Shown here piece after piece: positions 28,663-63,465 of a DNA stretch of 64,000 bases. Numbering within the stretch: position 1 is the stretch's first letter; each line of letters starts with the position of its first letter. Under the pieces are notes generated by a model. That model did not search any database. It had not been told where the DNA came from and worked only from the letters and a program-made list of their open reading frames with translations. This DNA is from Candidatus Shapirobacteria bacterium (GTDB taxonomy: Bacteria > Patescibacteriota > Microgenomatia > UBA12405), in contig JBAZYN010000002.1 of NCBI GenBank assembly GCA_041659325.1, positions 206,082 to 270,081 on the forward strand, written 5' to 3'. The translations under genes and the position numbers were made by a program.

Positions 28663-28724
28663 GTCTGAAAGTCGGAAAGTCGAAAGTCTAAAAGCCATGC
28701 CTGCCGGCAGGCAGGTCTAAAAGT
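28663..28724. repeat. GTCNAAA ('KSESLK') repeat plus palindrome GCCATGCCTGCCGGCAGGCAGGTC in intergenic spacer
   Basis: gtctgaaagtcggaaagtcgaaagtctaaaagccatgcctgccggcaggcaggtctaaaagt. Confidence 0.8.
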
Positions 28725-28738
28725 AATAAAGTAGAAAA

Positions 28739-32792: not shown

Positions 32793-32826
32793 GTGGTCAA
32801 AAGGATAAAGTAAACGAGTCTAAAAG

Positions 32827-32862
32827 TTAAAAGTCTAAAAGTCGAAAGTATGAAAACATCAA
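32827..32862. repeat. GTCNAAA repeat overlapping the ppdK start codon
   Basis: gtctaaaagttaaaagtctaaaagtcgaaagtatgaaaac. Confidence 0.7.
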
Positions 32863-41620: not shown

Positions 41621-41631
41621 AGGAATAATTT

Positions 41632-42450
41632 ATGAAAATTAAAATATTATTAGTAGTTAGCCTGATAGGGCTGGGAATTTGGTGGTGGGTTAACAGGCCA
41701 AACAATAATTTTAAAATGGTGTTTTGTGATGTCGGTCAGGGGGATGCGGCACTGGTGGTTTATGGTAATTTCCAGATGCTTATAGATGCAGGTCCCGAGA
41801 ACAGAAAGGTATTGAATTGTTTGGAGGATAATTTGCCGTTTGGGGATAAGCAACTGGAGTTAGCGGTAATAACCCACTGGGATTTGGACCACGCCGGTGG
41901 TATAAGAGATGTTTTGAATTATTACAAGATTGAAAAAGTGTTTTCCGGCACTAAACCGGAAGCGGGTTTTGAACAAATAAATTATACAGGTAATTTAAAG
42001 AGCGGTGATGTCATCAAATATGGATTGATGAGTTTTGAAATACTGTCAACGGAGGGAGTTGAGGGAAAAGGAGAGGATGAGGATAACGCTAATTCGGTGG
42101 TTGGGGTGTTAAGTTATAAGGACTATGTGTTTTTCATGATGGGAGATGCGCCGTTGGTAGTGGAGCAAAGACTGGTGTGGAGACAGATAGTCGAAAAGTC
42201 TCAAAGTCTTAAAGCCTCAAAGTCTGAAAATCTGAAAGTAGTATTAAAGGTGAGTCACCATGGGTCGGATACGGCTACGGGCGAGGAATTGTTGGAAGCG
42301 GTAAAGCCGAATATGGCGGTAGTTAGTGTGGGAAAAAATAATTTTGGGCATCCGGCGGAGGAGGTGATAAAAAGGCTTAACGAGAGGGGGATACAGATAT
42401 TAAGAACTGATATGATGGGGGAGATAGAGTTTGTAATCAGTAATCAGTAA
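41632..42450 (+). CDS. comEC: ComEC C-terminal metallo-beta-lactamase domain (separate ORF downstream of RAYT insertion)
   Basis: TM then MLIDAGPEN...AVITHWDLDHAGGIRDV...VSHHGSDTATGEELLEAVKPNMAVVSVGKNNFGHPAEEVIKRL. In-frame GTCNAAA insert (KSQSLKASKSENLKV) at 42190-42240. Confidence 0.65.
   Translation: MKIKILLVVSLIGLGIWWWVNRPNNNFKMVFCDVGQGDAALVVYGNFQMLIDAGPENRKVLNCLEDNLPFGDKQLELAVITHWDLDHAGGIRDVLNYYKIEKVFSGTKPEAGFEQINYTGNLKSGDVIKYGLMSFEILSTEGVEGKGEDEDNANSVVGVLSYKDYVFFMMGDAPLVVEQRLVWRQIVEKSQSLKASKSENLKVVLKVSHHGSDTATGEELLEAVKPNMAVVSVGKNNFGHPAEEVIKRLNERGIQILRTDMMGEIEFVISNQ
42190..42240. repeat. GTCNAAA repeat in-frame in comEC MBL domain
   Basis: gtcgaaaagtctcaaagtcttaaagcctcaaagtctgaaaatctgaaagt. 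Confidence 0.8.
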
Positions 42451-43668: not shown

Positions 43669-43968
43669 GTGGACAAGTGGAGACAGAGAATTCATAGATT
43701 AAGTATGAACCAACTAAAAGCGTTGGGGGTGTTGGCGGCGAGTAAAAACGGGATTGTGGAAGCATTGGAATCATCGGGTAATTTGCGTTTATACGGAAAA
43801 GCGTTGGGAGGAGTATTTTCGTCGCTGTCGCGACAAGTTTTGAACGGTCAGCATTTGATCGAGGCCTGGGGTCGTGTCGAACGCGGTAGGGGGTTGAGGT
43901 GGAAGCTGAACTTGGAAGCAATTAGTCAGCGGGAATTGAAAAAAGCGGTAGAGGAGGTACTGGGGTGA
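43669..43968 (+). CDS. small hypothetical protein, stop overlaps start of giant gene (ATGA)
   Basis: 99-aa ORF. The 4-bp overlap suggests translational coupling. Confidence 0.3.
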   Translation: MDKWRQRIHRLSMNQLKALGVLAASKNGIVEALESSGNLRLYGKALGGVFSSLSRQVLNGQHLIEAWGRVERGRGLRWKLNLEAISQRELKKAVEEVLG

Positions 43969-49900: not shown

Positions 49901-51197
49901 TTCGACCAATGAATGTAGTGCCCCGTCCGGGACAGTGAGCTATAAGCCGGACGGAAAGTGGAAGGTAGCCCCGACAATGACGGCTAGCCCGTCGGCGACG
50001 ATTAAAACAAAGTCGGCAACAATAAGTTGGTCGACAAACAGAACCAGTAATTCGTTTGTAAAATACGGAAAGACATCGGGGACTTACGGGGAAGAAGTGG
50101 GATCGTCTGACCAGGTATCGTTGCACGAAATTACTTTAACCGGATTGGACCCGGGAACGACGTATTATTATATTACTCAATGGACTGACGAGGATGGGAA
50201 TACCGGATCTTCGGCCGAGCTGAACCTGACGACTAATGCGGCACCATTTGTGTCGGCAGTAAAAGTGGTAGATACCGGATTGTACTCGGTCTATGTGGAG
50301 TTTAATTTAAGCAATGCAACAACGGCGACGGTGCAGTACGGGAAAACAATAAGTTACGGAGGGGTGCAAACGGTAACAACATCCCGGGAGGCGAGTAGTT
50401 ATACGGTAAAAATAGAGGGATTAGACGAGGGAACGGAATATCATTTGCGGATTGCCGCCAATGACGAGGAGGGTAATACTTTTGCTAGCGATGACTATAC
50501 CTTTGAAACATTGCCGGTACCAAAGATTAGCGGGGTAAAAATTCAGCAGGTCAAGGGTATGCCGACGGCGACGGTGCGGTTTTTATGGAAGACGAATACC
50601 GGAGTCAGTTCAATTATTACCTATTATCCTGAAGGAAGGGCGGAAATGGCCCGGGATCAAATATCGTTGCCTTTGACGTTAAATCATGAAATGATGATAA
50701 AAGATTTGTTGGATGATACGCCATATGTGTTTGTAATAAAGGGGAAAGATGTGATAGGAAACAGCGCTGAGCCCAGTCCTCAGAAATTTACAACATCGAC
50801 TGATTTGAGGCCGCCATCTATTTCTAACTTAAGACTAGAGGCTTCGGTGGCCGGGGTAGGCGAAGAGGCGAAAGCGCAAATTACTTTATACTGGGATACC
50901 GATGAGCCGTCGACGGCTCAGGTGGAGTACGGAGCCGGGACCGGATCTGATTATCCGAGTAAAACTCAGAAAGATGTGATTATGGTAATGAACCACACAG
51001 TAACAGTGACGGATTTGGCGCCGGGGCAGGTATACCACTTGCGGGTTTTGGCAGAGGATAGGGTGCAAAATTTGACAATGTCCTATGATAACGTGGTGAT
51101 TACACCAAAGGCGACCAGATCAGCCCTGGATTTGGTGGTAGAAAATTTGTCAAAGAGTTTTGGATTCTTTAATAATTTGTCGCAAGTAGCTAAATAA
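43965..51197 (+). CDS. giant (2410 aa) membrane-anchored surface protein with many Kelch-type beta-propeller blades and C-terminal FN3/PKD-like domains
   Basis: N-terminal TM. Dozens of repeats of the form YxxxG..x(F/Y)xxYDxxxxxW (e.g. DKVYVFRGNGTPDFWKYD). FN3-like segments (SATISWSTNRTSNSFVKYGKTSGTYGEE...HEITLTGLDPGTTYYY). The N-terminus KFINYELRITNYEF is encoded by the ATTACGA repeat. Confidence 0.7.
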   Translation: MKFINYELRITNYEFKKIVIVLVLWAVGLGVGLIGGNYWWNNRNEVSAADRVLTTTADFDGGRYMNMEADSKQGQLKLKADGSWGPRVFTVPNVNLGNESPIASDGNYIYVIASADNYFARYIPAEDKWETLASAPHYAYPGSDMVVLGDYVYAVFGGYQREFSRYSIVNDTWEEMAMLLDITYGGTSLSTDGNEIYCLRGHNTNDFWKYDVQADRWTPIGSTPLTIRYGADLSYSSETNKMYTPRGNSSNVFYIYDLGTSIWSIGPTLPETMTEDSNSDIGGTVIYVPRGIGTSTFWAFNVGTTQWSILTGTPQITRYVGAVYNAAEDKVYVFRGNGTPDFWKYDPGANSFPGPTDLPAAPGTGSDLIYSDGYWYYNRGGTTAMYRYNGAVGATWQTMAVGSSVFSSDTKGVAVNGLLYYLQGGGARNFFSFSPSVGVGGSWGTLATIPAAIAPNYGAGLAYPGSGDYIYATRGVGTRTFMRYDMPGNVWSDVGVTDLPDDAEAGYGSRIIGVGTTELFYIAGNGVAKFLKYNITSDAWTVLGNLPFSPYYGTDMTYYGGKMYFQAGYYKRDIWEYTLATGEWRRLADISGYNASDSGPYNGGSLESDGAGNLYSINGANVLWIRSYSIGSSRYPGGGSWNSGTIDLEYAAGWSGINVGKTTPGDSSVSVYTRSSSNQTSWSPWQEAVGMGISSPINRYLQIGVSMHSSSGGSETPIINDITVSYIGDTGVPTNPTSISGLSQQVAGVGLTSGQSYSYNQPYFDWSGGGDTETSVAGYYVYFGTGTTATVDPAISGSYQTDSSYLVTMPMQTGTYSLLIKTKDLGGNVSNTWQAFVYVYNGVSPFISFAQASTPEFSIGTTAGVDISNNRIRLMGTSGFWEQERLSLLQANVTVGNGGDVAVMGNKLYIMRGNGGKEFSIYDLSTDVVSVGPTMPATVAAGGALVEGPPGYLYAMRGGGTSTFWRYDIGASLWSDALAMDTLQQTNSGAAMVYDEGNYIYALKGNGDDTFMRYDASIDNWEVMANNVVFGAPENQADNLVNLGGDLAYDVGTSRVYAIQGNLRTGFAVYDVNADSWSQLPNLPALSYYGARIEYDSGTGAVFYIPGWDKPFLYKYDVGEQVWTKISDAPAGLGYGANLRKVGGYLYVTRGASTTTIYKYNIAKNSWVVPSWNLFGGWWRGSDSRTFADGADIIRGDGNNMYIFRGNYDNLFVKYNATTGEVTKLTDVPAGIFRGSELVYDSVNNKIYASTSIYDKKFMVYDIATDEWSQVVGSGGTMPTDAGEGSSLVFDGSEYIYRLRGGNTQTFHKFSVNTGLWSTLPNTPRAMQYGSDLEIYNSNYYATRGAGTTEFFMFNPTLGVWSSSPAIARLPTGMTFNYDGFLVKGASDKMYGCRGGNTADCFVYSVISNTWTYIGTSMPANLTYGGAGAINQTGDKMYVIAGAGTNTYSNGLYSYVISTDNSSVGESGTFISGAHDLGEVFRYANLEVGYSAAPNTTLMVWTRTSDDGVGWGSWVQASSEKQIGSDFYYRIGSTAKRYIQVRFDLASGDKMYSGTIYDYKINYYQDSAPPTNPTIISAFDNGGMGSTLVSGTFYATTAPYFDWPGVGETGAAGDGNGGSGVNGYYVYFGLGETANPVSGAGTTYTIATAHTGTGMTTGNLYYLRLKAKDEAGNVASEVGTTFVFGYDGSPPTNPTTITADPPGYTATNSFAFSWSGAGDTGAGVEGYYYKTGSVGATEVFTTDSNVAGIAAYQTGTNTFYVRTKDLAGNVSEYTTSSYYWSSTAPGAPRDLRLTYPDVGTSNTVNEFAFAWSSPDPETYFGQLSGLRYYYSFNETPSVSNVNEVGLAVTYLSKGAYATRRDTNTLYVVAMDEAGNIDYRNRASIDFEASTSAPGTPGDIDISDVSIKESSAWRLALTWDTPVATGSGVSMYKVYRSTTTGAVCTSDFSDFEYASSTTGVSYVDIGLTQVKYYYCVKACDSTNECSAPSGTVSYKPDGKWKVAPTMTASPSATIKTKSATISWSTNRTSNSFVKYGKTSGTYGEEVGSSDQVSLHEITLTGLDPGTTYYYITQWTDEDGNTGSSAELNLTTNAAPFVSAVKVVDTGLYSVYVEFNLSNATTATVQYGKTISYGGVQTVTTSREASSYTVKIEGLDEGTEYHLRIAANDEEGNTFASDDYTFETLPVPKISGVKIQQVKGMPTATVRFLWKTNTGVSSIITYYPEGRAEMARDQISLPLTLNHEMMIKDLLDDTPYVFVIKGKDVIGNSAEPSPQKFTTSTDLRPPSISNLRLEASVAGVGEEAKAQITLYWDTDEPSTAQVEYGAGTGSDYPSKTQKDVIMVMNHTVTVTDLAPGQVYHLRVLAEDRVQNLTMSYDNVVITPKATRSALDLVVENLSKSFGFFNNLSQVAK
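43977..44009. repeat. ATTACGA heptad repeat encoding the N-terminus of the 2410-aa protein
   Basis: caattacgaattacgaattactaattacgaatt. Confidence 0.85.
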
Positions 51198-51232
51198 TTA
51201 ATTACGAATTATGAATTACGAATTACGAATTA
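51198..51232. repeat. ATTACGA heptad repeat at giant-gene stop / ABC-gene upstream
   Basis: taattaattacgaattatgaattacgaattacgaatt. Confidence 0.85.
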
Positions 51233-51242
51233 AAAACTAAAA

Positions 51243-52064
51243 ATGTATCAGCGAACAGGACAAGGAGAGGCAATACTGAAGGTAGAAGAGGTGAAAAAGA
51301 ATTTCTACATCGGGGGACAGGATTTGCCGGTGCTAAAGGGGATAACCTTACAGGTTAACCGGGGGGATTTTGCAATAATTTTCGGGCCGTCAGGGTGTGG
51401 GAAATCAACCTTGTTACACGCTATTTTGGGGATGGAACCGCCAACCTCGGGCAAAGTATGGATTGACGGAGTGAATTTGTACAATATGGACGAAGACGAG
51501 ATTGTCCGACATAGAAAAGAGAGAATCGGGATTGTTTTTCAGCAATCGATTTGGATAAAGTCACTAACCGTGTTGGAAAATGTAAGTTTCCCAAACAGGC
51601 TTAAAGGGATGAGCAAGGAGGAGGCGGAATCGTTGGCCTTGGAGACTCTAAAGTCAGTGACACTGGATAATTGGGCTCATCACCACCCTTCGGAACTGTC
51701 TTCGGGGCAGCAGCAAAGGGTGAGTTTGGCCAGGGCGTTGACGATTGATCCTTTGGTGATTGTGGCGGATGAACCGACGGGGAATTTGGATACGGTTTCG
51801 GGAGATGAGTTAATGGAATTGGTATCGGAGCTAAATACAAAAAGAGGGAAAACGGTGCTAATGGTGACTCACGACTTGGAATATTTGAGATACGCAAATA
51901 AGCTGTTTCATATAATTGATGGGGAACTAGTAGAAGAAGTGGACGGGAAGGGGGCGATGGAATTGGCACAAAAGTTGAAAAGTAAAAAAGGTCTGCGAAC
52001 GAGAACGACGGTTCGCGATAAGAATTTTTTAGTCAGTAATAAAGAAAAATATGTGGCAAAATAG
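51243..52064 (+). CDS. ABC transporter ATP-binding protein (MacB/LolD/FtsE-like)
   Basis: Walker A GPSGCGKST. Signature LSSGQQQRVSLARAL. Walker B IVADEPTGNLD. H-loop VTHD. Confidence 0.85.
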   Translation: MYQRTGQGEAILKVEEVKKNFYIGGQDLPVLKGITLQVNRGDFAIIFGPSGCGKSTLLHAILGMEPPTSGKVWIDGVNLYNMDEDEIVRHRKERIGIVFQQSIWIKSLTVLENVSFPNRLKGMSKEEAESLALETLKSVTLDNWAHHHPSELSSGQQQRVSLARALTIDPLVIVADEPTGNLDTVSGDELMELVSELNTKRGKTVLMVTHDLEYLRYANKLFHIIDGELVEEVDGKGAMELAQKLKSKKGLRTRTTVRDKNFLVSNKEKYVAK

Positions 52065-54180
52065 ATTGATAAAAATTAAGGAAAAATTTTTAACAACAGG
52101 GGTGTTTTTGTGGTCCAATGTGGTGTTTATTGCCATACTTTATGTCTATGTAACCAGGGCGCTAATTATCCGCTTGTTAAGGCTAAGGGTATTAGGTTTT
52201 GTGCCCAGATTGATACACTTAGAGATATTGGTAAAAATACTTGATAAGGTAACCAAGTCGATTGATTTTGACGTAAAAAACCAAGTTTCCCGGGGCTATT
52301 TGGTAGAACTGGCTTTTAGGAACATGAAATCGAAAAAGAATCGGACGGTGGTGACAATCGGAGGAGTGGCCCTGGGGGTGGGAGCAATCGTGTTTTTGGT
52401 GTCGATGGGGTATGGGCTGGAGCGGATGGTGATTTCCAAGGTGGCCAGGTTGGATGAACTAAAAATGGCAGACGTATCGTCGGGAAAGGCGGCATCGCTG
52501 ACGATGAATGATGAAATAATTAAAAGAATAAAGGGTCTCGACGGAGTGGCGGAAGTTATTCCGATGGTGTCGATGGTGTCGAAGGTGAGATACAACAATT
52601 CTGTTTTGGATGTAATGACGTATGGGGTTGACGAAAGATATCTAAAAGCAGTCAATGCCAAATTTTTAAACGGGGAGCCGTTTAAGAATAAAAATGGAGA
52701 CATAATGTCGATGGTCCCAATTGAATATTCGGGTGAGGGGGAGGTGGCGGGGATAGAACAGGAAGTGGTTTGGGTGCAAAAAGGGGAAAAGGTGGAAGAC
52801 GGGGTAATCAGATTTAATGTGGCAGAGGGGAAGAAAGTTTTGGTGTATGAAGATTGTGACACGGATTCGACGGCTGCCGGTGAGGTAATTAGAAGTGAGG
52901 GTGGGTATATCGGGGAAGAAGTGTGGGGCGAGGTCTATGGTGAGGCCGATTCAGCCGTGGTGGGCAAAGATGTCTATCAGGAAGTAACTTATTCTAAGTG
53001 GGTCAGGACAAAGGCGCCTCTCTGGAAGGTGGATGATAAGGGAGTGGCGATTCCGTATCTGGATGGAGTGGGGAAGCAAAAATGGACAATCGGCTGTATT
53101 AAATCAGAGGATCTAATCATTGAGGCGCAGAGCATGGAAGAGTTTAATGCGGATAATCTGGACGAGTATATCTTTGGGTTGGAAAACAAGATTTTGGGAG
53201 AGACAATTTCTTCTGCCTCGGCTAGCCGGACGGCTTCGACCTCGGCGGAGTTGGTAGCGGTAGAGGCCAGTTCGAGTGCGGTCCTATTTGAGACGATAGT
53301 GGCCACAGATTCGGCCGGGGTAGAATGGGTGGAATTAAGAAAGATTGGAGAGGACAAAAATAAGCTGATGGAAATTGAGTACACGACGGAACCGGTGGCA
53401 GAGGCTTATGTGACCACCGGTTTGCTAAAGATGTTGGGTTTGGCCTCCAGTGAAGCGGCGGGGAAAAAGTTTATGGTTTCATATATTATCCCCGACGGAC
53501 TAGTAGAGGGGAAAAGTGGCAGGATGCAATCGGTCGAGAGGGAGTACAAGATTATGGGAGTGGTGGAGGATGATGGCAATAACTTTTATTATTTTCATTT
53601 GACAGATACAAAAAGTTTAGGGGCTAAAAGTTATTCACAGCTCAAAGTGACGGTGGTTGATAAAGCTAAGTTGGCTGAAGTCAGAAAAGCGATTGAGACG
53701 ATTGGTTTTAAAACAACTAGCACGGTAGATACGGTGGCGGGGATTGAGCGGATTTTTGGAACTTTGAGATTGATTTTGGGGCTGTTGGGAACAATTGCTT
53801 TGGCGGTGGCCTCGTTGGGGATGTTCAATACTATGACGGTGTCGCTTTTGGAGCGGACCAGGGAGGTGGGGGTAATGAAGTCAATGGGAATGTTGTCGAA
53901 AGAAGTGAGAGAATTATTTTTGGCCGAATCGATGATTATGGGAATGGGAGGAGGGACATTGGGGGTGCTGTTTGGATTTATGATGGGTTGGACTTTATCG
54001 ATAACATTGTCGGCGGTATCGGTGCTAAAGGGGCAGGGGGTGATAAATATTTCGTATGTGCCATGGTTTTTTGTAGCTTTTATTATGTTTATTTCTTTTA
54101 TGGTGGGGATGGTGACCGGGTGGTATCCCAGTAAACGGGCGAGAATGATTTCGGCTTTGAATGCGTTGAGGTATGAATAA
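52051..54180 (+). CDS. ABC transporter permease, MacB/FtsX-like with large extracytoplasmic domain
   Basis: N-terminal TM plus long periplasmic region. C-terminal FtsX 4-TM module (LGTIALAVASLGMFNTMTVSLLERTREVGVMKSMG...). Confidence 0.75.
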   Translation: MWQNRLIKIKEKFLTTGVFLWSNVVFIAILYVYVTRALIIRLLRLRVLGFVPRLIHLEILVKILDKVTKSIDFDVKNQVSRGYLVELAFRNMKSKKNRTVVTIGGVALGVGAIVFLVSMGYGLERMVISKVARLDELKMADVSSGKAASLTMNDEIIKRIKGLDGVAEVIPMVSMVSKVRYNNSVLDVMTYGVDERYLKAVNAKFLNGEPFKNKNGDIMSMVPIEYSGEGEVAGIEQEVVWVQKGEKVEDGVIRFNVAEGKKVLVYEDCDTDSTAAGEVIRSEGGYIGEEVWGEVYGEADSAVVGKDVYQEVTYSKWVRTKAPLWKVDDKGVAIPYLDGVGKQKWTIGCIKSEDLIIEAQSMEEFNADNLDEYIFGLENKILGETISSASASRTASTSAELVAVEASSSAVLFETIVATDSAGVEWVELRKIGEDKNKLMEIEYTTEPVAEAYVTTGLLKMLGLASSEAAGKKFMVSYIIPDGLVEGKSGRMQSVEREYKIMGVVEDDGNNFYYFHLTDTKSLGAKSYSQLKVTVVDKAKLAEVRKAIETIGFKTTSTVDTVAGIERIFGTLRLILGLLGTIALAVASLGMFNTMTVSLLERTREVGVMKSMGMLSKEVRELFLAESMIMGMGGGTLGVLFGFMMGWTLSITLSAVSVLKGQGVINISYVPWFFVAFIMFISFMVGMVTGWYPSKRARMISALNALRYE

Positions 54181-54186
54181 GAAAAA

Positions 54187-54250
54187 GAAAGTCTAAAAGT
54201 CTGAAAGTCTTAAAGTCGAAAGTTATAAAGTTCATAAAGTTTATAAAGAG
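54187..54250. repeat. GTCNAAA repeat (intergenic)
   Basis: gaaagtctaaaagtctgaaagtcttaaagtcgaaagttataaagttcataaagtttataaag. Confidence 0.8.
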
Positions 54251-54330
54251 GGGGAAAAAATAACGTCATTGCCACACTTCTTCCGGCAGAGGCGGACAAG
54301 CGCAATGGTGGGTAAACCGGCAGGCGGGTT

Positions 54331-54680: not shown

Positions 54681-57383
54681 ATGAATTTTGCTGAAATCGA
54701 GCCAAAATGGTTAAAGTTTTGGAATGAGCATCCGGAGCTTTATAGAGCCACTGAGTCTGAAAGTCTGAAAGCCATGCCTGCCGGCAGGCAGGTCTTAAAG
54801 TCTGAAAGTAAAAAAGATAAAAAATACATTTTGGTGGAGTTTCCGTATCCGAGTGGAAGCGGATTGCATGTTGGTCATGCTTTTAGTTTTACGGCAGCAG
54901 ACATATATGCCAGGTTTAAGAGAATGCAGGGGTATAATGTGATGTTTCCTATGGGGTGGGATGCGTTTGGACTGCCGACTGAGAATTATGCAATAAAGAT
55001 GAAGCGGAAACCACAAGAGATTGCCCGGGAGAATATTGATATGTTTAGGGAGCAGGCGAAGAGGTTGGCGCTTTCTTTTGATTGGGAGAGAGAAGTAAGC
55101 ACGATTGATCCAAATTATTATAAATGGACTCAATGGATTTTTATACAATTATTTAAGAAGGGATTGGCATACAAGAAAGAGATGCCGATTAATTGGTGTC
55201 CTTCATGTAAAATCGGTTTGGCAAATGAAGAAGTAGTGGATGGGAAGTGTGAACGGTGTGGGGCAGAAGTTTCAAGAAGAAATATTTCCCAATGGGTGGT
55301 AAAAATTACTAATTATGCAGACCGACTGCTAGAAGGGTTAAAAAATACCGATTTTATCGATAAAGTAAAACAGGCGCAGATAAACTGGATTGATCGTAAA
55401 GAATGGATCGATATTACTTATCCGATTGAAGGAACGAAAGAAACAGTGACAGTGGCAACGACCAGGCCGGATACAAATTTTGGAGCGACTTTTATTGTGT
55501 TGGCGCCGGAACATGATTTGGTAAGTAAGTTGACAACCGGAATGCTAAAAACGGATCAGGACTTAAAAGAGATAAAGAACTATGTGGTTAAAGCTAAGAG
55601 GAAATCGGAATTAGAAAGGCAGCGGGAAGTAACCGGTAGGGATAAAACGGGGGTGTTTACCGGATTGTATGCAATTAACCACTTAACAAATAAAAAAATG
55701 CCGATTTGGATAACGGATTTTGTATTGGCAACAGTGGGAACGGGGGCGGTGGTTGGAGTGCCGGGACACGATATTCGTGATTTTGAATTTGCCAAGCAAT
55801 TTGGTCTGGAGGTGAAAAGAGTAGTAGTAGGTAAAGATGGTGATAAATCGGAAATAATCAAAAAGGAACAGGTTCAGGAAGAGGAGGGGGAGATGGTCAA
55901 TTCCGGTTTTCTTGACGGACTCGGTATCCATGAGGCAACAAAAAAGGTTATGGATTATTTGGAAGAGAAGGGGTGGGGGAAAAGATCGATCAGATATCAC
56001 TTAAGAGACTGGATATTTTCCAGGCAGCATTATTGGGGAGAGCCAATACCGATGATTTTTTGCGAAAAATGCGCAGAAAATCAAACCCTACCCCCGGCCC
56101 CTTCCCTTGACAGGGCAGGGGAAAAAGAAATTCTCCCTTGTCAAGGGGAGATGGCCGAAGGCCAGAGGGGTTTGAATTGCGGTTGGGTTCCGGTGCCGGA
56201 GGATCAACTGCCAATTAAGTTGCCGGAGGTTGAGGCGTATGAGCCGACTGAGGACGGGAAGAGCCCGTTGTCAAAAATTGAAAGCTTTGTGAAGTGCAAA
56301 TGCCCGGTATGCGGGGGCGAGGCAAAGAGGGAAACGGATACAATGCCAAACTGGGCGGGATCTGACTGGTATTATCTCGCATATTTATTACCTAATATGC
56401 GAGAGTCTGAAAGTCAAAAGTCAAAAGTCGAAAGTAATAAGGGAAATATTTTTATTGAAAATCAAGAGAAACTAAGAGAATGGATGCCGGTTGATATATA
56501 TATTGGCGGGGATGAACACAATACTTTGCATTTGCTGTATTCCCGGTTTATTTACCAGTTTTTATGGGATTTGGGAGTGGTCCCCAAAGAGTATCCGGAG
56601 CCGTATATAAAGCGGGTATCGCATGGGGTGATTTTGGGGCCGGATAATCAGAGGATGAGTAAGTCGAAGGGAAATATAATAGTGCCGGAAAAGGTGTCTG
56701 AGGTATATGGAGTGGATGTGATTAGGTGCTATCTAATGTTTATGGGACCGTTTGATGCAGTAATGGCATGGAATGAAAAAACTTTAATGGGGGTGAAGAG
56801 GTTTTTGGATAGGTTTAGTAAATATATTAATGATCAATTACGAATTACCCACCTCGGCGGGCAGGCGAATTACGAATTAGACATAGTGTCTGCTAGCAAA
56901 GCCGAGGATAAAGTGTTTATCAATAAGATGGTGGCCGGGGTGACAAAGGACTTAGAAGAATTTGGCTATAACACGGCGATAGCGAAGATGATGGAAGGAA
57001 TAAATCAATTACGAATTAATAATTACGAATTACGAATTGAGGAAATAAAAACGTTAATTAAATTAATTGCGCCGTTTGCGCCGTATTTGGGGGAGGAGCT
57101 TTGGAGCATGTGTGGAGAAAAGGGGTCGGTACATGTTTCTGCCTGGCCGGTGGCAGAGGATAAGTATTTGGTTGAGAAGACAATTACAATAGCGGTGGCG
57201 ATTAATGGAAAAGTGAGGGATCAGATAGAAGTCGAAAGTCTAAAAGTCTTAAAGTCTGAAAGTAAAGAAGAAATTATTGCGGAGGCAAAGAAATTGGAAA
57301 AGATTCAAAAGTGGCTGGAAGGAAAGAAGATTATCAGAGAAATATATGTGCCGGGGAAGATGGTTAATTTTGTAGTAGAGTAG
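54681..57383 (+). CDS. leuS: leucyl-tRNA synthetase carrying five in-frame repeat-derived insertions
   Basis: HIGH-class motif PYPSGSGLHVGHAFSFTAADIYARF. KMSKS as RMSKSKGN. Editing and anticodon-binding regions. Inserts at 54754-54812, 56085-56180, 56401-56436, 56836-56879 and 57007-57040/57231-57266. Confidence 0.9.
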   Translation: MNFAEIEPKWLKFWNEHPELYRATESESLKAMPAGRQVLKSESKKDKKYILVEFPYPSGSGLHVGHAFSFTAADIYARFKRMQGYNVMFPMGWDAFGLPTENYAIKMKRKPQEIARENIDMFREQAKRLALSFDWEREVSTIDPNYYKWTQWIFIQLFKKGLAYKKEMPINWCPSCKIGLANEEVVDGKCERCGAEVSRRNISQWVVKITNYADRLLEGLKNTDFIDKVKQAQINWIDRKEWIDITYPIEGTKETVTVATTRPDTNFGATFIVLAPEHDLVSKLTTGMLKTDQDLKEIKNYVVKAKRKSELERQREVTGRDKTGVFTGLYAINHLTNKKMPIWITDFVLATVGTGAVVGVPGHDIRDFEFAKQFGLEVKRVVVGKDGDKSEIIKKEQVQEEEGEMVNSGFLDGLGIHEATKKVMDYLEEKGWGKRSIRYHLRDWIFSRQHYWGEPIPMIFCEKCAENQTLPPAPSLDRAGEKEILPCQGEMAEGQRGLNCGWVPVPEDQLPIKLPEVEAYEPTEDGKSPLSKIESFVKCKCPVCGGEAKRETDTMPNWAGSDWYYLAYLLPNMRESESQKSKVESNKGNIFIENQEKLREWMPVDIYIGGDEHNTLHLLYSRFIYQFLWDLGVVPKEYPEPYIKRVSHGVILGPDNQRMSKSKGNIIVPEKVSEVYGVDVIRCYLMFMGPFDAVMAWNEKTLMGVKRFLDRFSKYINDQLRITHLGGQANYELDIVSASKAEDKVFINKMVAGVTKDLEEFGYNTAIAKMMEGINQLRINNYELRIEEIKTLIKLIAPFAPYLGEELWSMCGEKGSVHVSAWPVAEDKYLVEKTITIAVAINGKVRDQIEVESLKVLKSESKEEIIAEAKKLEKIQKWLEGKKIIREIYVPGKMVNFVVE
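54754..54812. repeat. GTCNAAA repeat + GCCATGCCTGCCGGCAGGCAGGTC palindrome in-frame in leuS (ESESLKAMPAGRQVLKSESKKD)
   Basis: agtctgaaagtctgaaagccatgcctgccggcaggcaggtcttaaagtctgaaagt. Confidence 0.85.
56085..56180. repeat. copy of DUF559-element terminal repeat (CCCTTGTCAAGGGGAG...GAGGGGTTTGA) inserted in-frame in leuS
   Basis: ccttcccttgacagggcagggg...ctcccttgtcaaggggagatggccgaaggccagaggggtttgaattg. It encodes PAPSLDRAGEKEILPCQGEMAEGQRGLNCG, which is absent from E. coli LeuS at this position (recalled from memory). Confidence 0.7.
56401..56436. repeat. GTCNAAA repeat in-frame in leuS (ESESQKSKVESNKG)
   Basis: gagagtctgaaagtcaaaagtcaaaagtcgaaagt. Confidence 0.8.
56836..56879. repeat. ATTACGA repeat (interrupted by cctcggcgggcaggcg) in-frame in leuS
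   Basis: caattacgaattacccacctcggcgggcaggcgaattacgaatt. Confidence 0.75.
57007..57040. repeat. ATTACGA repeat in-frame in leuS (QLRINNYELRIEE)
   Basis: caattacgaattaataattacgaattacgaatt. Confidence 0.85.
57231..57266. repeat. GTCNAAA repeat in-frame in leuS (VESLKVLKSESKEE)
   Basis: gtcgaaagtctaaaagtcttaaagtctgaaagt. Confidence 0.8.
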
Positions 57384-57386
57384 TCT

Positions 57387-57956
57387 ATGGGCGAAGATGA
57401 TGTTGCTGAGATGACTACTCCTGCAGAAGAGATAGATATAAAGGACGTTTATAAGGGGCCGATGATAAATGTAGTGGAGGAAAGCAGGAAAGGTCTGATT
57501 AGTAACCAGAGAGTATCAGAGATGTTGGAGGTATTAGGTAAAGGTGGAGTAGTGATGGTGGAATCCGCCTTCCCTCGATTTGCTATGTATGATAGTGGTA
57601 AATTGGAATTTGGTTTGCCGAAGGAACCGGAAACGGAAGTTGGTGTGATACATGAGTTAGTCCATGCTGAACAGTGGCTCGGGGTTTTTAGGGAAGGTAT
57701 TACTCCCGAACAATTTATGCAATGGCTCGATGGAGATGATTCTGGTATTGCAGAAGTACTCGCTGAAATATCAGCGTATAGAGTTCAGCTAGAACAGCTC
57801 TTTTTTAGAGGGATTGCCGAAGGCGAAATTGTAGAAGAATTACGAAGGAGGGTTGGTTGGGGGGAGGAAATAGTTAGAGAGGCTGGTTATGAGGTTCCGG
57901 AGGATATAAAAAATCCGTATTGTGATTTTATGGGTATAGAACATCTTAATGAATAA
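57387..57956 (+). CDS. hypothetical protein with HExxH zinc-metallopeptidase-like motif; 8-bp overlap with downstream M16 peptidase gene
   Basis: VGVIHELVHAEQW (HELVH). Confidence 0.4.
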   Translation: MGEDDVAEMTTPAEEIDIKDVYKGPMINVVEESRKGLISNQRVSEMLEVLGKGGVVMVESAFPRFAMYDSGKLEFGLPKEPETEVGVIHELVHAEQWLGVFREGITPEQFMQWLDGDDSGIAEVLAEISAYRVQLEQLFFRGIAEGEIVEELRRRVGWGEEIVREAGYEVPEDIKNPYCDFMGIEHLNE

Positions 57957-59760: not shown

Positions 59761-59832
59761 TGTCCCCACCGAGAATCGAACTCGGATCTGCTGCTTAGGA
59801 GGCGGCTATTCTATCCATTGAACTATAGGGAC
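59761..59832 (-). tRNA. tRNA-Arg (anticodon CCU); CCA not encoded
   Basis: Hand-folded cloverleaf on the minus strand. Acceptor GUCCCUA/UGGGGAC. T-arm CCGAG-UUCGAUU-CUCGG. Anticodon loop CUCCUAA. One C-A mismatch in the anticodon stem. Confidence 0.55.
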
Positions 59833-59850
59833 GGAGTAAAATAATTATAA

Positions 59851-59876
59851 ATTACGAATTACGAATTACGAATTGG
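59851..59876. repeat. ATTACGA heptad repeat between the two tRNA genes
   Basis: aattacgaattacgaattacgaatt. Confidence 0.85.
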
Positions 59877-59955
59877 TATCGACTAGATTTGTTATTTATT
59901 AAAGTTCTGCAGTGGGTGGTCGCCATCGCTTTGATAAATTTGCTACGGTGACCGA

Positions 59956-60067
59956 TGTCGGGGTTACTGGATTTCCCCCATTCGGGGGATAAACTTCTCA
60001 TCCAGTAACTTGGTCGGGGTTACTGGATTTCCCCCATTCGGGGGATAAACTTCTCATCCAGTAACTT
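59956..60067 (-). repeat. two tandem 56-bp units each starting with a copy of the tRNA-Pro 3' end (gtcggggttactggatt) followed by a hairpin-containing 39-bp tail
   Basis: Units at 59956-60011 and 60012-60067. The third occurrence of the 17-mer (60068-60084) is the genuine 3' end of tRNA-Pro. Confidence 0.7.
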
Positions 60068-60142
60068 GGTCGGGGTTACTGGATTCGAACCAGCAGCCTC
60101 AGCGTCCCGAACGCTGCGCGCTAGCCAATTGCGCCAAACCCC
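60066..60142 (-). tRNA. tRNA-Pro (anticodon CGG) with encoded CCA
   Basis: Minus strand. Acceptor CGGGGUU/AACCCCG (C1-G72, typical of bacterial tRNA-Pro). D-stem GCGC. Anticodon loop UUCGGGA. T-arm GCUGG-UUCGAAU-CCAGU. A73 then CCA. Confidence 0.75.
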
Positions 60143-60484
60143 GATAAGGATTCTCTTATATCTTAATGTACAGGCAAAAAGGGATGGAAAGTTAAGGTTC
60201 TGTCAGAAATTCCCAGAGCCTTTTTGCAAGGACTATTATATCCTATTTGAGGTGTTTTTTCCGATGGTATGTATTTATATAGAAGGAATAGGATAGGAAT
60301 ATATTGATGTGTTAGGCGAAAATGACGAGGTTATAAAATTGGCAAAAGGAGTGGGGCGGTGCTAAAAGATTTATTGTTTTATATTGATGAAAAGTGAGGG
60401 GAAAACATGAGTTTGAGGCAATATGGGTTTTGGTGGAAAAAGAATGAATTGGATATGATAGTAGAAAGGGGTTTTTTGATAATT

Positions 60485-60615
60485 TATATGTCAACAGACC
60501 GGAAAAACTCCAATAATGGTTGCCCAATGGTTTTTTGCCAGAATAAATCCCGTTCCGGCTGTGTCATTTCGGAGAGATGTTTGCCGGTCTCAGCGTCTAT
60601 CTGAATTGAATCGAG
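60485..60615. repeat. degenerate 131-bp copy of the 3' end (last ~44 codons) of gene 62141-62773
   Basis: About 95% identical to 62142-62273 (tatatgtcaacagaccggaaaaac...ctatctgaattgaatcgag). Confidence 0.8.
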
Positions 60616-60632
60616 CATTAACGTAAAGATAT

Positions 60633-61232
60633 CTATAAAATATCAATCTCTTGAGAAAGAGCTAATTGGTCAAGTCCCCAGAAATCACTGGCTTTCGCGC
60701 TAAAATGTATCTTTCCGTCTTCTGACATTCCGGCAGTTCTTAGGCCGACGGTTTCCCCCACGGCATATATTATTTTTTCATCCGGACGAAAATCGCCTAT
60801 CTTAATCCCTTCCGGCGAAGATGACCTGTTGCACGCCATAACCACTTGGACGGGAGGTTCTCCCTTGTCTTCCAGGTATTTATTTACTGCTCTTACGGTT
60901 TCAACCACGGGATATCCGTCTTCTATGGAACTAAACTGCCACTTTCCACCCTCCTCTCTTCCTCCGTGCATAAAAATTACCTGGACGTTTTCTAAAATCA
61001 CCCCTTCTGGGTGTTTTTCGTCGTATAAACTCATTACATCCGCTTTAAAAACATAAGGTGGACCCGATAAATTTCTCATTACTTCTCTGTCAACCGACCT
61101 CGTCTCTCTATTCATGGGAAAACCTCGCCTAATCCATATGTTTCTTTCTAAATCCACACAAACCAAAGTCTCTACCTGAATATCTCTTTCTGTAATTTTG
61201 ATAGGAGTTTCATCGTTCTTACCCATATACAA
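60633..61232 (-). CDS. hypothetical protein (cassette gene 1); higher GC than surroundings
   Basis: 199-aa ORF, no recognisable motif. Lies between the 131-bp direct repeats. Confidence 0.4.
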   Translation of the reverse strand: MYMGKNDETPIKITERDIQVETLVCVDLERNIWIRRGFPMNRETRSVDREVMRNLSGPPYVFKADVMSLYDEKHPEGVILENVQVIFMHGGREEGGKWQFSSIEDGYPVVETVRAVNKYLEDKGEPPVQVVMACNRSSSPEGIKIGDFRPDEKIIYAVGETVGLRTAGMSEDGKIHFSAKASDFWGLDQLALSQEIDIL

Positions 61233-61390
61233 TTATAAACACAATTCAACGACCTGATGTTAAGCCAAAGCACCTTTTATCTATACCAATAGTTCTATAA
61301 TGTTTTCGCCGACGGAAACTGATGTTTTAGCAGCTGCGGGTAGGCACCCCGTGGGTATATCTGGCGGTGTTTGTTTGCCCTGGTTTTCAA

Positions 61391-61981
61391 CTACCCTTTT
61401 GGGGTTTCTAGGCTTGGTCTACTAAGGATGCTTTTCATAATCTCAAACTTTTCATGAGGTTCTGGACCTATAGTACTAACTGTCGGATTTTCCCTTCTTG
61501 ATTCCTCTGCCGCGCTTGCATGTCTTTTATCATCCTCATGTGTTGATTGTAATGCATCACTGAACTTGAGGTTATCGGGATCCCGATTATCAACTGGGGT
61601 GGACAAAAAGGCATCAAGCATTTTGAAGCCTTTTTTGGCAATGTCAACTAATTCAAGTAAACCTGCTTTAGATTCTCCTTCCATAGGCGAGCCTATAAGG
61701 ACAGACCCTTCTTCCCATGGTATTACCGAAAAAGATATTTGGTCATTTTGGCCATCTTCGCCTTCGGGTTGGGGTATAATTCTGGAAGATATATAAACAT
61801 AGGGGGGGCGTTCATGGTGAAGATCATCTCTTTGTAGACCGACACTGACTAGTCTTGCACCGCCTTCGGGCAAAGCTTGATATACTCTTATATCTCCAAT
61901 CCTATCCCTTACGACGGATATGTCAGGATAAGAACGAGTTAGCTCCAGTAGAGATGGGGCGCCCTCGATTTCTCTTTTCAT
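61391..61981 (-). CDS. hypothetical protein (cassette gene 2)
   Basis: 196-aa ORF, acidic C-terminal half, no recognisable domain. Confidence 0.4.
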   Translation of the reverse strand: MKREIEGAPSLLELTRSYPDISVVRDRIGDIRVYQALPEGGARLVSVGLQRDDLHHERPPYVYISSRIIPQPEGEDGQNDQISFSVIPWEEGSVLIGSPMEGESKAGLLELVDIAKKGFKMLDAFLSTPVDNRDPDNLKFSDALQSTHEDDKRHASAAEESRRENPTVSTIGPEPHEKFEIMKSILSRPSLETPKG

Positions 61982-62140
61982 ATACGAAATTCTAACATGT
62001 ACACGTGTCTATTAGCAATAATTTACAGGTAAATTATTCAACCTTGATTATTATAAAACGGGCTTTGGGGTTGTAGGGTAAATTTTTGATTAATTAAAAA
62101 GAAAGATCAAACAATAGTGGATTTAGTAGTTTCGGGATGG

Positions 62141-62773
62141 TTATATGTCAACAGACCGGAAAAACTTCAATAGTGGTTGCCCAATGGTTTTTTGCCAGAA
62201 TAAATCCCGTTCCGGCTGTGTCATTTCAGAGAGATATTTGCCGGATTCGGGGTCTATCTGAATTGAATCGAGGGGATAGCCTTCAACTATTTGTGGGCTG
62301 GGTTGAGCGGTAAAGGTTCTGGGAGATTTTATTGTTGTTTCCCAAGTTTTACCTTCGGGGGTGGCGATACATAGGCCAAATTCCCAATATCCGCCAACTT
62401 CTCCTCCCAACCCAAGTATTAGATCGGAGTAGTATTTAAGCATTTGTTCGTCGGAAGATATATTTGGGTAACCGTTAATTCTCCGGACATTTAATCCCGG
62501 CTGGTTTTCTGGTGGCAGGCCATTAATGTATAAAGCGTTATCCATAGAAAAAACAGGTTCTCCAAGCGTCTTGGCGTAGGCGATGGCCTTTTTGTGGGCA
62601 TTTTCAGCAGCTGTTTTCCCGTTTTCATCGACAGTCGGGAGTAATCCTTTGTCGGTGATTCCTTTTACTATAATGTGAGCCGGAGCAAGGGCACCTTCGA
62701 TTTGTTTAATTTTTGCGTTATTAGTAGTGCCAAAGAGTATTGCTTTCATTTTTTGAGTATAGCAAGGTAGCAA
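62141..62773 (-). CDS. putative Ham1/RdgB-like non-canonical NTP pyrophosphatase (tentative)
   Basis: N-terminal MKAILFGTTNNAKIKQIEG resembles the RdgB N-terminal motif, and C-terminal LSEMTQPERD resembles the RdgB C-terminal motif. Weak. Confidence 0.35.
   Translation of the reverse strand: MLPCYTQKMKAILFGTTNNAKIKQIEGALAPAHIIVKGITDKGLLPTVDENGKTAAENAHKKAIAYAKTLGEPVFSMDNALYINGLPPENQPGLNVRRINGYPNISSDEQMLKYYSDLILGLGGEVGGYWEFGLCIATPEGKTWETTIKSPRTFTAQPSPQIVEGYPLDSIQIDPESGKYLSEMTQPERDLFWQKTIGQPLLKFFRSVDI
62142..62273. repeat. intact copy of the 131-bp repeat (3' end of gene 62141-62773)
   Basis: See the copy at 60485-60615. Confidence 0.8.
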
Positions 62774-62832: not shown

Positions 62833-63465
62833 ATGAAGTTTCAACTAGTTTGCTTTGATCTAAATAAAACTCTAATTTCTGAAAACACCTGGTATGAACT
62901 AAATCTGGCCATGGGGATGACTGCTGAAGAAGATCAGGCCCTGTTCGCTCTTTATCAAAAAGGGGAATTGACATACGTTGATTGGCAAAAAGAACTGGAA
63001 AGAATTTATATAAAAAATGGCAAAGCTACACGGGAGAATATATCGAAGGTTATTTATAACTACACCTATCGTGTTGGGGCAAAGGAGGTAATAGAGTACC
63101 TAAAATCAAAAGGCTATACTCTTGCTCTTATTAGTGGGTCAATTGATGTTTTGGTTGAGAGAGTTGCGAGGGAGTGTGGAATTTCGCACTATTTGGCCAA
63201 CAACACATTTGTTTATGACAAAAATAACTATTTAAAAGAAATTAAATGTCTGGGTGGTGATGTAGAGGTAAAAGGTTTACAACTGCGGCAACTCTGTGAG
63301 GAATTAAAAATTGATATTACCCAAGTAGTATGTGTGGGGGATGGAGATAATGACTTCGAAATTTTTAAACTATCGGGGCACGGAATAACTTTTGAAGGAT
63401 CAAAGATAGAGCCGTATGCCTGGAAGACAATCGGGCAATTAACGGATCTCCGGTTAATTTTGTAG
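62833..63465 (+). CDS. HAD-superfamily hydrolase, subfamily IB (phosphoserine phosphatase-like)
   Basis: Motif I FDLNKTL (DxDxT). Motif IV GDGDND. ISGSID motif. Confidence 0.7.
   Translation: MKFQLVCFDLNKTLISENTWYELNLAMGMTAEEDQALFALYQKGELTYVDWQKELERIYIKNGKATRENISKVIYNYTYRVGAKEVIEYLKSKGYTLALISGSIDVLVERVARECGISHYLANNTFVYDKNNYLKEIKCLGGDVEVKGLQLRQLCEELKIDITQVVCVGDGDNDFEIFKLSGHGITFEGSKIEPYAWKTIGQLTDLRLIL

Follow-up and report, generated by a model that had tools for sequence, protein, structure and literature searches.

In a 64,000-nucleotide stretch of a Candidatus Shapirobacteria genome (hereafter the window), the 3′ end of a Ham1-like gene occurs twice, as near-identical direct repeats on either side of a 1.5 kb insert that carries two genes. 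With a probability of about 0.5, we read this cassette as an integrase-less remnant of a Campbell-type insertion that regenerated the end of its target gene, similar to a CIME, i.e., a cis-mobilizable element without integration and transfer genes that retains attL and attR (PMC5704250). From the target gene to the neighbouring tRNA gene, the features of the region are:

62141..62749, minus strand, Ham1/RdgB-like non-canonical NTP pyrophosphatase gene (PF01725), 202 aa from its likely start, intact, the target
62141..62272, minus strand, repeat copy X, attL-like, spanning L160-I202 and the stop codon of the Ham1-like gene
61982..62140, minus strand, spacer of 159 nt directly past the Ham1 stop codon (read from the sequence)
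61391..61981, minus strand, gene A, 196 aa, of a small, fast-evolving family
61227..61390, minus strand, spacer of 164 nt between gene A and gene B (read from the sequence)
60633..61226, minus strand, gene B from its most likely start, 197 aa, a conserved protein found only in Patescibacteria
60484..60615, minus strand, repeat copy X′, attR-like, orphan 3′ fragment of the Ham1-like gene
60144..60483, no strand, non-coding spacer of 340 nt from X′ to tRNA-Pro
60067..60143, minus strand, tRNA-Pro(CGG), neighbour outside the cassette (ARAGORN and Rfam)

The duplicated end of the Ham1-like gene

The product of the target gene matches Pfam family PF01725 with 44.4 bits (cut-off 22.5) over residues 12-115. 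NCBIfam equivalog models match it far below their cut-offs (54 vs 234 bits), which places the gene in a divergent Patescibacteria subfamily. Translation likely starts from the ATG at 62749, which makes the protein 202 aa long, like all homologues. A total of 181 Ham1-like homologues were found, most of them 200-203 aa long and from Patescibacteria, and a Candidatus Shapirobacteria MAG has an annotated protein identical to it. The gene keeps every family-invariant residue.

Positions 60484-60615 and 62141-62272 form a gapless direct repeat of 132 nt, with 124 of 132 positions identical (94%, 8 mismatches) and a start-to-start spacing of 1657 nt. It is the longest near-identical dispersed repeat of the window, and about 1e-54 such repeats would be expected by chance in 64 kb. 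The repeat extends exactly from codon L160 of the Ham1-like gene to the stop codon, i.e., over 43 codons plus the stop. The initial annotation, which had proposed aligning the two copies, was thus right that the gene end is duplicated and that the stop is included, but its coordinates were off by one, and it gave 131 bp, roughly 95% identity and roughly 44 codons.

Outside either edge of the repeat no homology was detected (local alignment against shuffled sequences, p 0.27-0.78), and the continuation past the stop codon that a MAFFT alignment hinted at was rejected as not exceeding shuffled sequences. Since only 4 of the differences within the repeat are of the synonymous type, the flanks differ by origin and are not diverged homologues. 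Within the repeat, both copies share an identical core of 54 nt (60517-60570 and 62174-62227), and the mismatches are clustered, with six of the eight falling within 24 nt (P about 0.011) and the variant clusters separated by 55-61 nt; the 3′ variants of copy X′ are at 60510 and 60516. Such clustering would be expected if the segments flanking the core differed in history or in constraint.

The two copies also differ in how well they preserve the family consensus. Copy X, which ends the intact gene, has the family-typical residues P167, S169 and Y172. Copy X′ carries A167, T169 and H172 instead; at the same positions, 24 homologues have P in 21 cases and A in none, S or T, and Y in all 24. Together with an ATG at 60616-60618, copy X′ makes up a 44-codon ORF that starts 14 nt past the gene B stop. 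Judging by its residues, the orphan seems to be a relic in decay.

The two inner junctions, namely that of gene B with X′ and that of X with the spacer before gene A, are also present in an independent assembly (Logan, run SRR18595301). One contig of the Logan data (L001, 1663 nt) was considered as evidence of a circular form and rejected: at each end it extends into the 54-nt shared core by exactly the overhang of k-1 = 30 nt, which identifies it as a unitig between two branch points of the assembly graph.

Genes and spacers of the insert

Both genes that the initial annotation had placed between the copies are real, although gene B most likely starts at 61226 and not at 61232. A word-indexed search with gene A returned only gene A itself. 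Five distant relatives could be identified (25-34% identity, E 2e-8 to 8e-4), all of which share the motif AYPDxSVxRxRxG with it, and one of them, at locus L095, belongs to an array of small accessory genes that share one strand. Gene A has no match in Pfam, PHROG, PADLOC or NCBIfam, and its single-sequence AlphaFold2 model has a pLDDT of 49.

Gene B has about 28 homologues with 47-74% identity, all in Patescibacteria, and contains the motifs NLSGPPYVF, VIFMHGGR, GYPVVETV and ACN. Its AlphaFold2 model reaches a pLDDT of 90.5, and a Foldseek search with this model gave no match in PDB or BFVD (best E 0.5-0.6). The sequence likewise had no match in PDB, nor in the Pfam, NCBIfam, PHROG and PADLOC family libraries. 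The homologues of gene B occupy unrelated housekeeping contexts and never adjoin Ham1, and no direct repeats were found around them in other genomes. A 188-aa neighbour of one homologue (at locus L006), considered as a possible relative of gene A, proved unrelated. Given the unrelated contexts of gene B's relatives and the small, divergent family of gene A, both genes behave as accessory genes.

The 159-nt spacer between copy X and gene A contains a promoter-like site (62018-61989, TTGCTA-18-TAGAAT with TG) and, also upstream of gene A and read from the sequence, the palindrome AATAATTTAC..GTAAATTATT. On the other side of the cassette, the 340-nt spacer contains no credible ORF, has no Rfam match and shows no homology to 61982-62140, the spacer that follows copy X. 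We infer that it is the original sequence downstream of the Ham1-like gene.

Base composition

The claim that GC content and codon usage of the cassette genes differ visibly from those of their neighbours turned out to be wrong. The two genes have GC contents of 0.426 and 0.435, compared with 0.446 +/- 0.040 for the 33 ORFs of the window and 0.42-0.44 for the immediate neighbours, and their synonymous-codon log-likelihoods of -1.117 and -1.179 fall within the window distribution of -1.156 +/- 0.056. The sole low value for the cassette is the GC3 of gene A (0.325, about 2 SD low), and two undisputed neighbour genes are similarly low (0.347 and 0.355). The change in GC skew at the cassette is a switch of coding strand. 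Compositional foreignness was therefore rejected, both GC content and codon usage being native-like.

Searches for mobile-element machinery and related loci

Pfam domains of integrases, excisionases or recombinases were found neither in the insert nor in any of the 32 scanned ORFs of the window, in agreement with the initial annotation, which had noted that no integrase remains there. The phage, plasmid or defence-island affiliation for which it had proposed to search did not emerge, as neither gene A nor gene B could be tied to phages, plasmids, IMG/VR, PHROG or PADLOC. Using gene A, gene B and the peptide motif of the repeat as queries, we found no second copy and no attP-like free form of the unit in the IMG/VR, phage and plasmid collections.

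Related loci were surveyed by exact-protein look-ups, a family-profile scan of GTDB that gave 66 loci and a scan of metagenomes that gave 15. A second Ham1 C-terminal copy, or the same arrangement, was seen at none of the 66 GTDB and about 19 metagenome/Logan loci. Even the closest Ham1 relative shares just 70% of its residues, which accounts for no empty site having been found, and the roughly 85 related loci lack synteny with the region. The sole partial echo is at locus L025, where Ham1 abuts an M16 peptidase gene in a different orientation. A 43-aa ORF after Ham1 at L077 and L079 proved not to be a Ham1 fragment.

Ham1-like pseudogenes and fragments do occur elsewhere. Homology begins at residue 62 at L074 and at residue 137 at L075, at L087 it is lost past residue 160-163, and the orphan fragment of L088 starts with residue 164. 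Nothing in the cassette resembles the sequences on either side of L087 and L088. With these flanks and the breaks at 62 and 137, a recombination hotspot at Ham1 codons 160-165 is no more than a weak lead. At L076, a relative, two Ham1-family genes lie side by side.

Origin of the cassette

In the reading that we prefer, a small circular DNA would have entered the 3′ part of the chromosomal Ham1-like gene by a single, Campbell-type crossover. The circle would have borne a near-identical version of the final 43 codons and stop of Ham1, and the recombinase, most probably a site-specific one, would since have been lost. The Ham1-like gene would have stayed intact, now ending in copy X, with the insert and its genes A and B coming directly after its stop codon, and the other gene end would have been left as the orphan X′ before the original downstream DNA and tRNA-Pro. 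What remains would be a 1657-bp integrase-less unit between attL/attR-like direct repeats. We infer that the intermediate was circular, what kind of recombinase acted and which of the copies is derived from the element. The 54-nt identical core should also make RecA-mediated loss of the cassette possible, which would leave an intact chimeric Ham1 gene, as is seen for icd/icdC.

Several observations argue for such an insertion. The repeat has sharp limits, codon 160 on one side and the stop codon on the other, and no homology in its flanks; an edge exactly at the stop codon is what one would expect if only a functional gene end had been carried. The orphan X′ has non-family residues where the gene copy keeps P, S and Y, genes A and B behave as accessory genes, and both inner junctions recur in the Logan assembly. 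Of the site-specific, terminus-regenerating integration that the initial annotation had put forward, the anatomy therefore stands (intact target, insert on its 3′ side, distal orphan), but its compositional argument does not, and neither an integrase nor a mobile-element affiliation has come to light. The lack of a recombinase in the insert and the 32 scanned ORFs, of a second copy or free form in the IMG/VR, phage and plasmid collections, and of an empty site for comparison all weigh against the preferred reading, as does the native-like composition and codon usage. In addition, the 17 nt between the end of gene B and X′ are too few for a non-coding recombinase-binding arm on that side, no second instance of the arrangement occurs among the 66 GTDB and about 19 metagenome loci of this Ham1 family, and 132 nt is long for an att site, although the repeat of e14 (see below) is longer.

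A more far-reaching reading, which we regard as very unlikely, may be mentioned. In it, the unit would be a live, minimal (1.66 kb) recombinase-less cassette of Patescibacteria that depends on an integrase gene at another locus for its movement in trans. It would attach at the conserved part of the Ham1-like gene from GYPL(D/E)SIQ to the stop, and L087 and L088, broken within five codons of the same point, would be other occupancy states. In a lesser variant, the 44-codon orphan ORF behind gene B, with its own ATG, would be expressed.

DNA of a sister strain could also have been inserted by RecA or by illegitimate recombination, with no dedicated recombinase or mobile element involved, which we consider rather unlikely. 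Either a circularised fragment bearing the Ham1 3′ end would have entered by RecA-mediated single crossover, or homology-facilitated illegitimate recombination would have been anchored in or upstream of Ham1 with the other end joined at codon 160; the duplication would be a by-product. A 54-nt identical run would suffice for RecA, and a donor of the same species or genus is implied by the 94% identity, given that database relatives reach no more than 70% protein identity. The native-like composition and codon usage also speak for this alternative, as do the missing recombinase and mobile-element affiliation. However, the stop of homology at the exact stop codon is left unexplained: at 6% divergence the downstream DNAs should align as well, barring a further event at that very base, and the ends of the donor fragment would be needed at two very specific places. 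The same boundary speaks against a local origin, in which a second Ham1 paralogue or a segmental duplication downstream of genes A and B would have lost its first 159 codons, with both genes as ancestral residents. Decayed Ham1-like pseudogenes and fragments with various limits (L074, L075, L087 and L088), the two adjoining Ham1-family genes of L076 and the native-like composition lend this some credit. Nevertheless, a duplication normally takes flanking DNA with it, whereas homology here ends at the stop, both a duplication and a precise deletion would be required, and the clustering of mismatches is not expected if a stub decays uniformly, so that we judge a local origin unlikely.

Finally, in an assembly artefact, two strain variants of the Ham1 3′ end would have been threaded into one contig, and the true structures would be either an unoccupied site with a second molecule beside it or another linear arrangement. 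The sequence does come from a metagenome-assembled genome, and a short-k graph cannot phase through the 54-nt identical core, exactly where L001 breaks. However, the inner junctions lie at the repeat edges and not in shared sequence, both were reproduced independently, and variant clusters 55-61 nt apart can be phased by ordinary reads and large-k assemblers, which makes such an artefact most improbable. Even if the contig were threaded the other way, into an empty site and a circle of 1657 bp, these would represent the same element after excision.

Comparison with known elements

The anatomy of the cassette is the same as that of e14 (and of phage 21) in icd of E. coli K-12 with its icdC pseudogene. 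Both have the 3′ part of a protein-coding gene as target, a near-identical replacement end, an intact gene and a distal orphan of the original end. We measured the icd/icdC repeat of e14 at 165 nt with 12 mismatches (92.7% identical), ending 1 nt past the stop; as in the cassette (132 nt, 94%), homology sets in abruptly inside the gene and halts at the stop. Upon excision of e14, the icd and icdC copies recombine and restore a chimeric functional gene (PMC13626634). In contrast to the cassette, with its 1.5 kb insert, two genes and no recombinase, e14 spans 15.2 kb and carries intE, xisE and phage genes. The host of the cassette is a Patescibacterium and its target a Ham1-like gene, and its excision is putative.

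CIMEs, decayed remnants of ICEs or IMEs such as those at the 3′ end of fda in Streptococcus thermophilus, resemble the cassette in that they sit at a housekeeping gene's 3′ end and carry only cargo. The cassette likewise lacks integration and transfer genes, and its flanking repeats are present as candidate att sites. The att repeats of CIMEs measure tens of bases, compared with 132 nt here. For CIMEs, autonomous relatives with the cognate integrase are known and mobilisation in trans has been shown; for the cassette, no autonomous relative with an integrase of the same specificity was found in the window or the searched collections.

Islands linked to tRNA genes also duplicate the 3′ end of their target, and a tRNA-Pro with duplicated 3′ ends does lie 340 nt away, the distance that had been reported. 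The suggestion that the cassette belongs with these att-like scars is not tenable. The duplicated ends lie at 59957-60085, 3′ of the tRNA, and the cassette at 60484-62272, 5′ of it; being on opposite sides of tRNA-Pro, scars and cassette cannot bound one island. An island at tRNA-Pro was rejected for the same topology, as the cassette is not between the tRNA 3′ end and the distal repeat.

With integron cassettes the unit shares its small size, paucity of promoters, one or two genes and lack of a recombinase of its own. An integron cassette was rejected given that there is no attC-like hairpin and no intI and that the repeats are direct copies of the host gene end; compared with shuffled sequences, single-strand folding of the repeats gave z values of -0.2 to -0.8 on three of the four strands and a weak -2.3 on the fourth. 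Transposons and insertion sequences typically produce target-site duplications of 2-15 bp and have terminal inverted repeats and a transposase. This class was rejected as well, since the insert encodes no transposase, its ends are not paired by any inverted repeat and the duplication measures 132 nt.

Significance

The case repeats a principle known since e14 and icd and adds no new mechanism, and the cassette is plausibly an ordinary-looking relic. Nevertheless, the mobile DNA of Patescibacteria (Candidate Phyla Radiation) is poorly charted, and their tiny genomes are often called static. The cassette points to two accessory genes specific to the lineage as cargo shuffled horizontally, one of which has a confident predicted structure without a detectable structural relative, and its 132-bp repeat offers a built-in handle on excision via attB/attP-type junctions. 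If our reading is true, the cassette is a clean scar of Campbell-type integration into protein-coding genes having shaped a Patescibacteria genome.

Locus organization and the duplicated gene end

The source of this DNA is a metagenome-assembled Candidatus Shapirobacteria genome (Patescibacteria), and a 335,373-bp NCBI/JGI contig encodes the exact Ham1-like, gene A (WC841_04415) and gene B (WC841_04410) proteins. Read along the minus strand, with a divergent neighbor listed last, the locus is laid out as follows.

62749 to 62141, minus: Ham1-like gene, first in the local order
159 nt, minus-strand reading: spacer between the Ham1-like gene and gene A
61981 to 61391, minus: gene A
164 nt, minus-strand reading: spacer between gene A and gene B
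61226 to 60633, minus: gene B
60618 to 60484, minus: orphan copy of the Ham1 3' end, a 44-codon ORF beginning 14 nt past gene B
340 nt: non-coding DNA between the orphan ORF and tRNA-Pro
60143 to 60067, minus: tRNA-Pro(CGG)
Beyond tRNA-Pro: two perfect 56-nt tandem units, then tRNA-Arg(CCT)
62833-63465: HAD-family hydrolase gene, divergent from the Ham1-like gene

The initial annotation had described a 131-bp repeat bracketing the two genes, and the repeat is indeed present, but its coordinates were one base off: the copies at 60484-60615 and 62141-62272 align without gaps over 132 nt, with 124/132 positions identical. The chance expectation of such a repeat in 64 kb is about 1e-54, and a chance origin is excluded. 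It is the longest of the near-identical dispersed repeats in the window; direct repeats of greater length are confined to the interior of giant ORFs, at 77-80% identity. In the sense of the gene, the repeat opens with codon L160 (between ...GYP and LDSIQ...) and closes on the last base of the stop codon. Next to the stop codon, 60, 120 and 200 nt of flank were aligned locally, and at the opposite edge 60 and 120 nt; none of these alignments outscored shuffled sequence (p 0.27-0.78). As the repeat itself carries only four synonymous-type differences, the flanks are not old homologous DNA that has drifted; judged from these alignments, the two copies are flanked by DNA of different origin, with a sharp junction at either edge of the repeat.

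A 1663-nt contig from the Logan assembly of SRR18595301 is identical to the window from inside the orphan copy, across both cassette genes, to within the copy at the Ham1-like gene end, and so verifies the two inner junctions. At either end it stops with precisely the 30-nt overhang of a 54-nt core shared by the copies, making it uninformative on a circular form and on the outer junctions, for which support comes from the MAG assembly alone. We consider misassembly very improbable.

Differences between the two copies

The eight mismatches between the copies result in four amino-acid changes.

Table. Amino-acid differences between the copies and residue counts among 24 homologues
Residue; gene copy; orphan copy; homologues
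167; P; A; P 21, A 0
169; S; T; S 18, T 6
172; Y; H; Y 24, H 0
195; K; E; E 15, K 4

The orphan copy deviates from the family at one strongly preferred and one invariant residue, which fits a fragment free of selection. Six of the eight mismatches crowd into 24 nt close to the 5' edge (P about 0.011), followed by the identical 54-nt core (60517-60570 = 62174-62227), beyond which there are only two differences. A crossover within this core would give a pre-insertion gene end reading P, S, Y, E, all family-typical, and an element-borne copy reading A, T, H, K, the untranslated 5' part of which would have been free to drift while its translated 3' part was constrained.

Composition and content of the cassette

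Contrary to the earlier claim of deviant GC content and codon usage, both cassette genes are native-like. GC content is 0.426 for gene B and 0.435 for gene A, against 0.446 +/- 0.040 for 33 window ORFs, and neighboring genes have similar values (Ham1 0.437, M16 peptidase gene 0.422, LeuRS 0.422). Synonymous-codon likelihoods of both genes fall within the window distribution, and GC3 is low only for gene A (0.325), with comparable values in ORF 57387-57956 (0.347) and the HAD gene (0.355). The observed GC-skew shift reflects a coding-strand switch.

Gene B is a genuine conserved gene, with 28 homologues (47-74% identity), all on Patescibacteria-type metagenome contigs, in a family of about 29 members restricted to Patescibacteria. 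The family alignment shows invariant His, Trp and Asp and a nearly invariant Cys; invariant residues include H72, H87 and W96, and there are motifs such as VIFMHGGR. AlphaFold2 models the protein with confidence (pLDDT 90.5, pTM 0.86). The model had no Foldseek match in PDB or BFVD (best E 0.5-0.6, TM <0.2), and profile searches against Pfam, NCBIfam, PHROGs, PADLOC and PDB sequences were likewise empty; the predicted structure may represent an uncharacterized enzyme fold. The surroundings of the homologues are unrelated and mostly housekeeping: for instance, one adjoins hrcA-grpE-dnaK and a toxin-antitoxin pair (contig L005), and two are near a ribosome hibernation factor gene (L002, L006). 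No gene B homologue lies beside a Ham1 gene or has flanking direct repeats.

Gene A had appeared to be an orphan in a word-indexed search, which an exhaustive HMMER scan overturned by retrieving five relatives of similar length (25-34% identity) sharing an N-terminal AYPDxSVxRxRxG motif. One, a distant relative, is on contig L095 (L095:1-12519) in a long run of small, unrelated accessory genes that all share one strand. The run looks like a cassette array and includes GNAT acetyltransferases (several), a HigB/HigA-like pair, NYN, HIT and SHOCT. Neither gene matched phage, plasmid or IMG/VR collections, and both behave as lineage-specific accessory genes.

Ham1-like relatives and relics

Within Patescibacteria the Ham1-like family shows good conservation (181 matches, typically 200-203 aa), the closest homologue being only 70% identical. 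The C-terminal 43 residues include the invariant W185, G190 and F196, and given their conservation, truncating the gene at codon 159 would probably leave it defective. The 66 loci from GTDB species representatives, four Logan loci and 15 metagenome loci searched had neither cassette gene, no HAD neighbor and no repeated C-terminal end near Ham1. At L076:7287-8609 (also L077-L079), the closest, 70%-identical homologue stands back-to-back with a shorter, 169-aa Ham1-family gene, so paralogous pairs of this family exist in related genomes.

Decayed Ham1-like genes and isolated fragments are present in other genomes, including relics from residue 62 (L074) and residue 137 (L075). On one metagenome contig a frameshifted gene (L087:2323-2860) loses homology after GYPL...NSI, residue 160-163, and on another an orphan fragment (L088:100-253) starts with IDPESGKY, residue 164, with stop codons before it. 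The breakpoints of these last two of the four relics thus lie within 5 codons of the window junction, inside the motif that the family conserves best; their flanks have nothing in common with the cassette. A recombination hotspot at Ham1 codons near 160 is an unproven lead.

Recombinases, tRNA-Pro and other repeats

The initial annotation's statement that no integrase is left in the window was borne out, as none of the 32 ORFs scanned (0/32) had an integrase, resolvase or typical transposase domain above threshold. The sole exception, a weak sub-threshold IS200/Y1-like match at 40917-41555 with REP-like hairpins, is about 20 kb away and has no evident link to the cassette. This 212-aa ORF (E 4e-4) lies between the halves of a seemingly split ComEC-like gene (39883-42450), namely a 'Competence' ORF (39883-40914) and a metallo-beta-lactamase ORF (41632-42450). 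It is flanked by REP-like hairpins GGGCGGACACGCCGGTCCGCCC, found at 8922, 35035, 40804, 41208, 41259 and 41587, and by a 51-nt direct repeat of 96% identity (40982 and 41548), and may on this pattern be a RAYT-like element.

The proposal of a single decayed island with tRNA-Pro scars did not hold. Three copies of the final 17 nt of tRNA-Pro stand 56 nt apart (59957, 60013, 60069), and two full 56-nt units (59957-60085), 100% identical, each end in these 17 nt, with a 39-nt spacer comprising the reverse complement of part of the tRNA 3' end and a TCCCCCGAATGGGGGA hairpin. These units lie 3' of tRNA-Pro (lower coordinates) and the cassette 5' of it; a tRNA-integrated island would sit on the side opposite the cassette, so the two signatures are independent. 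Either a mini integration event or slippage could account for the units, and slippage explains a perfect tandem repeat as easily.

Several other repeats were observed. Arrays with 8-nt periodicity (GAAAGTCT/AAAAGTCN) occupy intergenic DNA and extend into coding regions (3264-3460, 28659-28738, 32798-33143, 42164-42255, 54173-54260, 57211-57275); in LeuRS (54681-57383) they encode ...LKSESKKDKK... and ...ESLKVLKSESKEE.... A palindrome, GCCATGCCTGCCGGCAGGCAGG, lies within the arrays of 8-nt repeats at 3251-3307, 28682-28738 and 54759-54815, one site being in the 5' part of LeuRS and translated as KAMPAGRQV. Arrays of 7-nt repeats, AATTACG(n) and GTAATCN(n), are dispersed across the window (40393-40462, 43947-44030, 51184-51253, 56991-57060, 59827-59896, and further at 8414, 9044, 19349, 30486, 38770, 42432 and 54331), one within LeuRS translated as INQLRINNYELRIEE and another adjoining tRNA-Arg.

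Proposed origin of the cassette

The best-supported explanation, to which we assign a probability of about one half, is that a small circular DNA bearing a Ham1 gene-end mimic entered by Campbell-type insertion. The recombinase responsible would most likely have been site-specific and since lost, the outcome being a two-gene remnant without an integrase. The geometry is the same as that of the textbook case, cryptic prophage e14 at icd in E. coli K-12, and the numbers are nearly the same: by our measurement, e14 begins 165 nt before the icd end, and the pseudogene icdC at its far end repeats the same 165 nt with 12 mismatches (92.7%), the homology starting abruptly inside the gene and ending one base past the stop codon. 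Upon e14 excision, icd and icdC recombine into a functional chimera (PMC13626634). The content differs, as e14 is 15 kb with intE and xisE, whereas the Ham1 insert is 1.5 kb without a recombinase. The closest named state is a CIME (cis-mobilizable element, an integrase-less remnant keeping attL and attR), although no cognate autonomous element was found in the window or the collections searched. Folding of the repeat gave no integron-type attC-like hairpin, and transposon target-site duplications are far shorter than 132 nt.

Recombinase-independent insertion of DNA from a sister strain would agree with the native composition of the cassette, but it leaves the junction at the stop codon unexplained, and we hold it to be possible at clearly longer odds than the Campbell-type insertion. 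Still less likely is that the orphan copy is what is left of a decayed local Ham1 paralogue, which requires a duplication and then a deletion with unlikely limits. A scar of this kind is already known and not surprising in itself; this instance of it is new, and it comes from an under-studied phylum.
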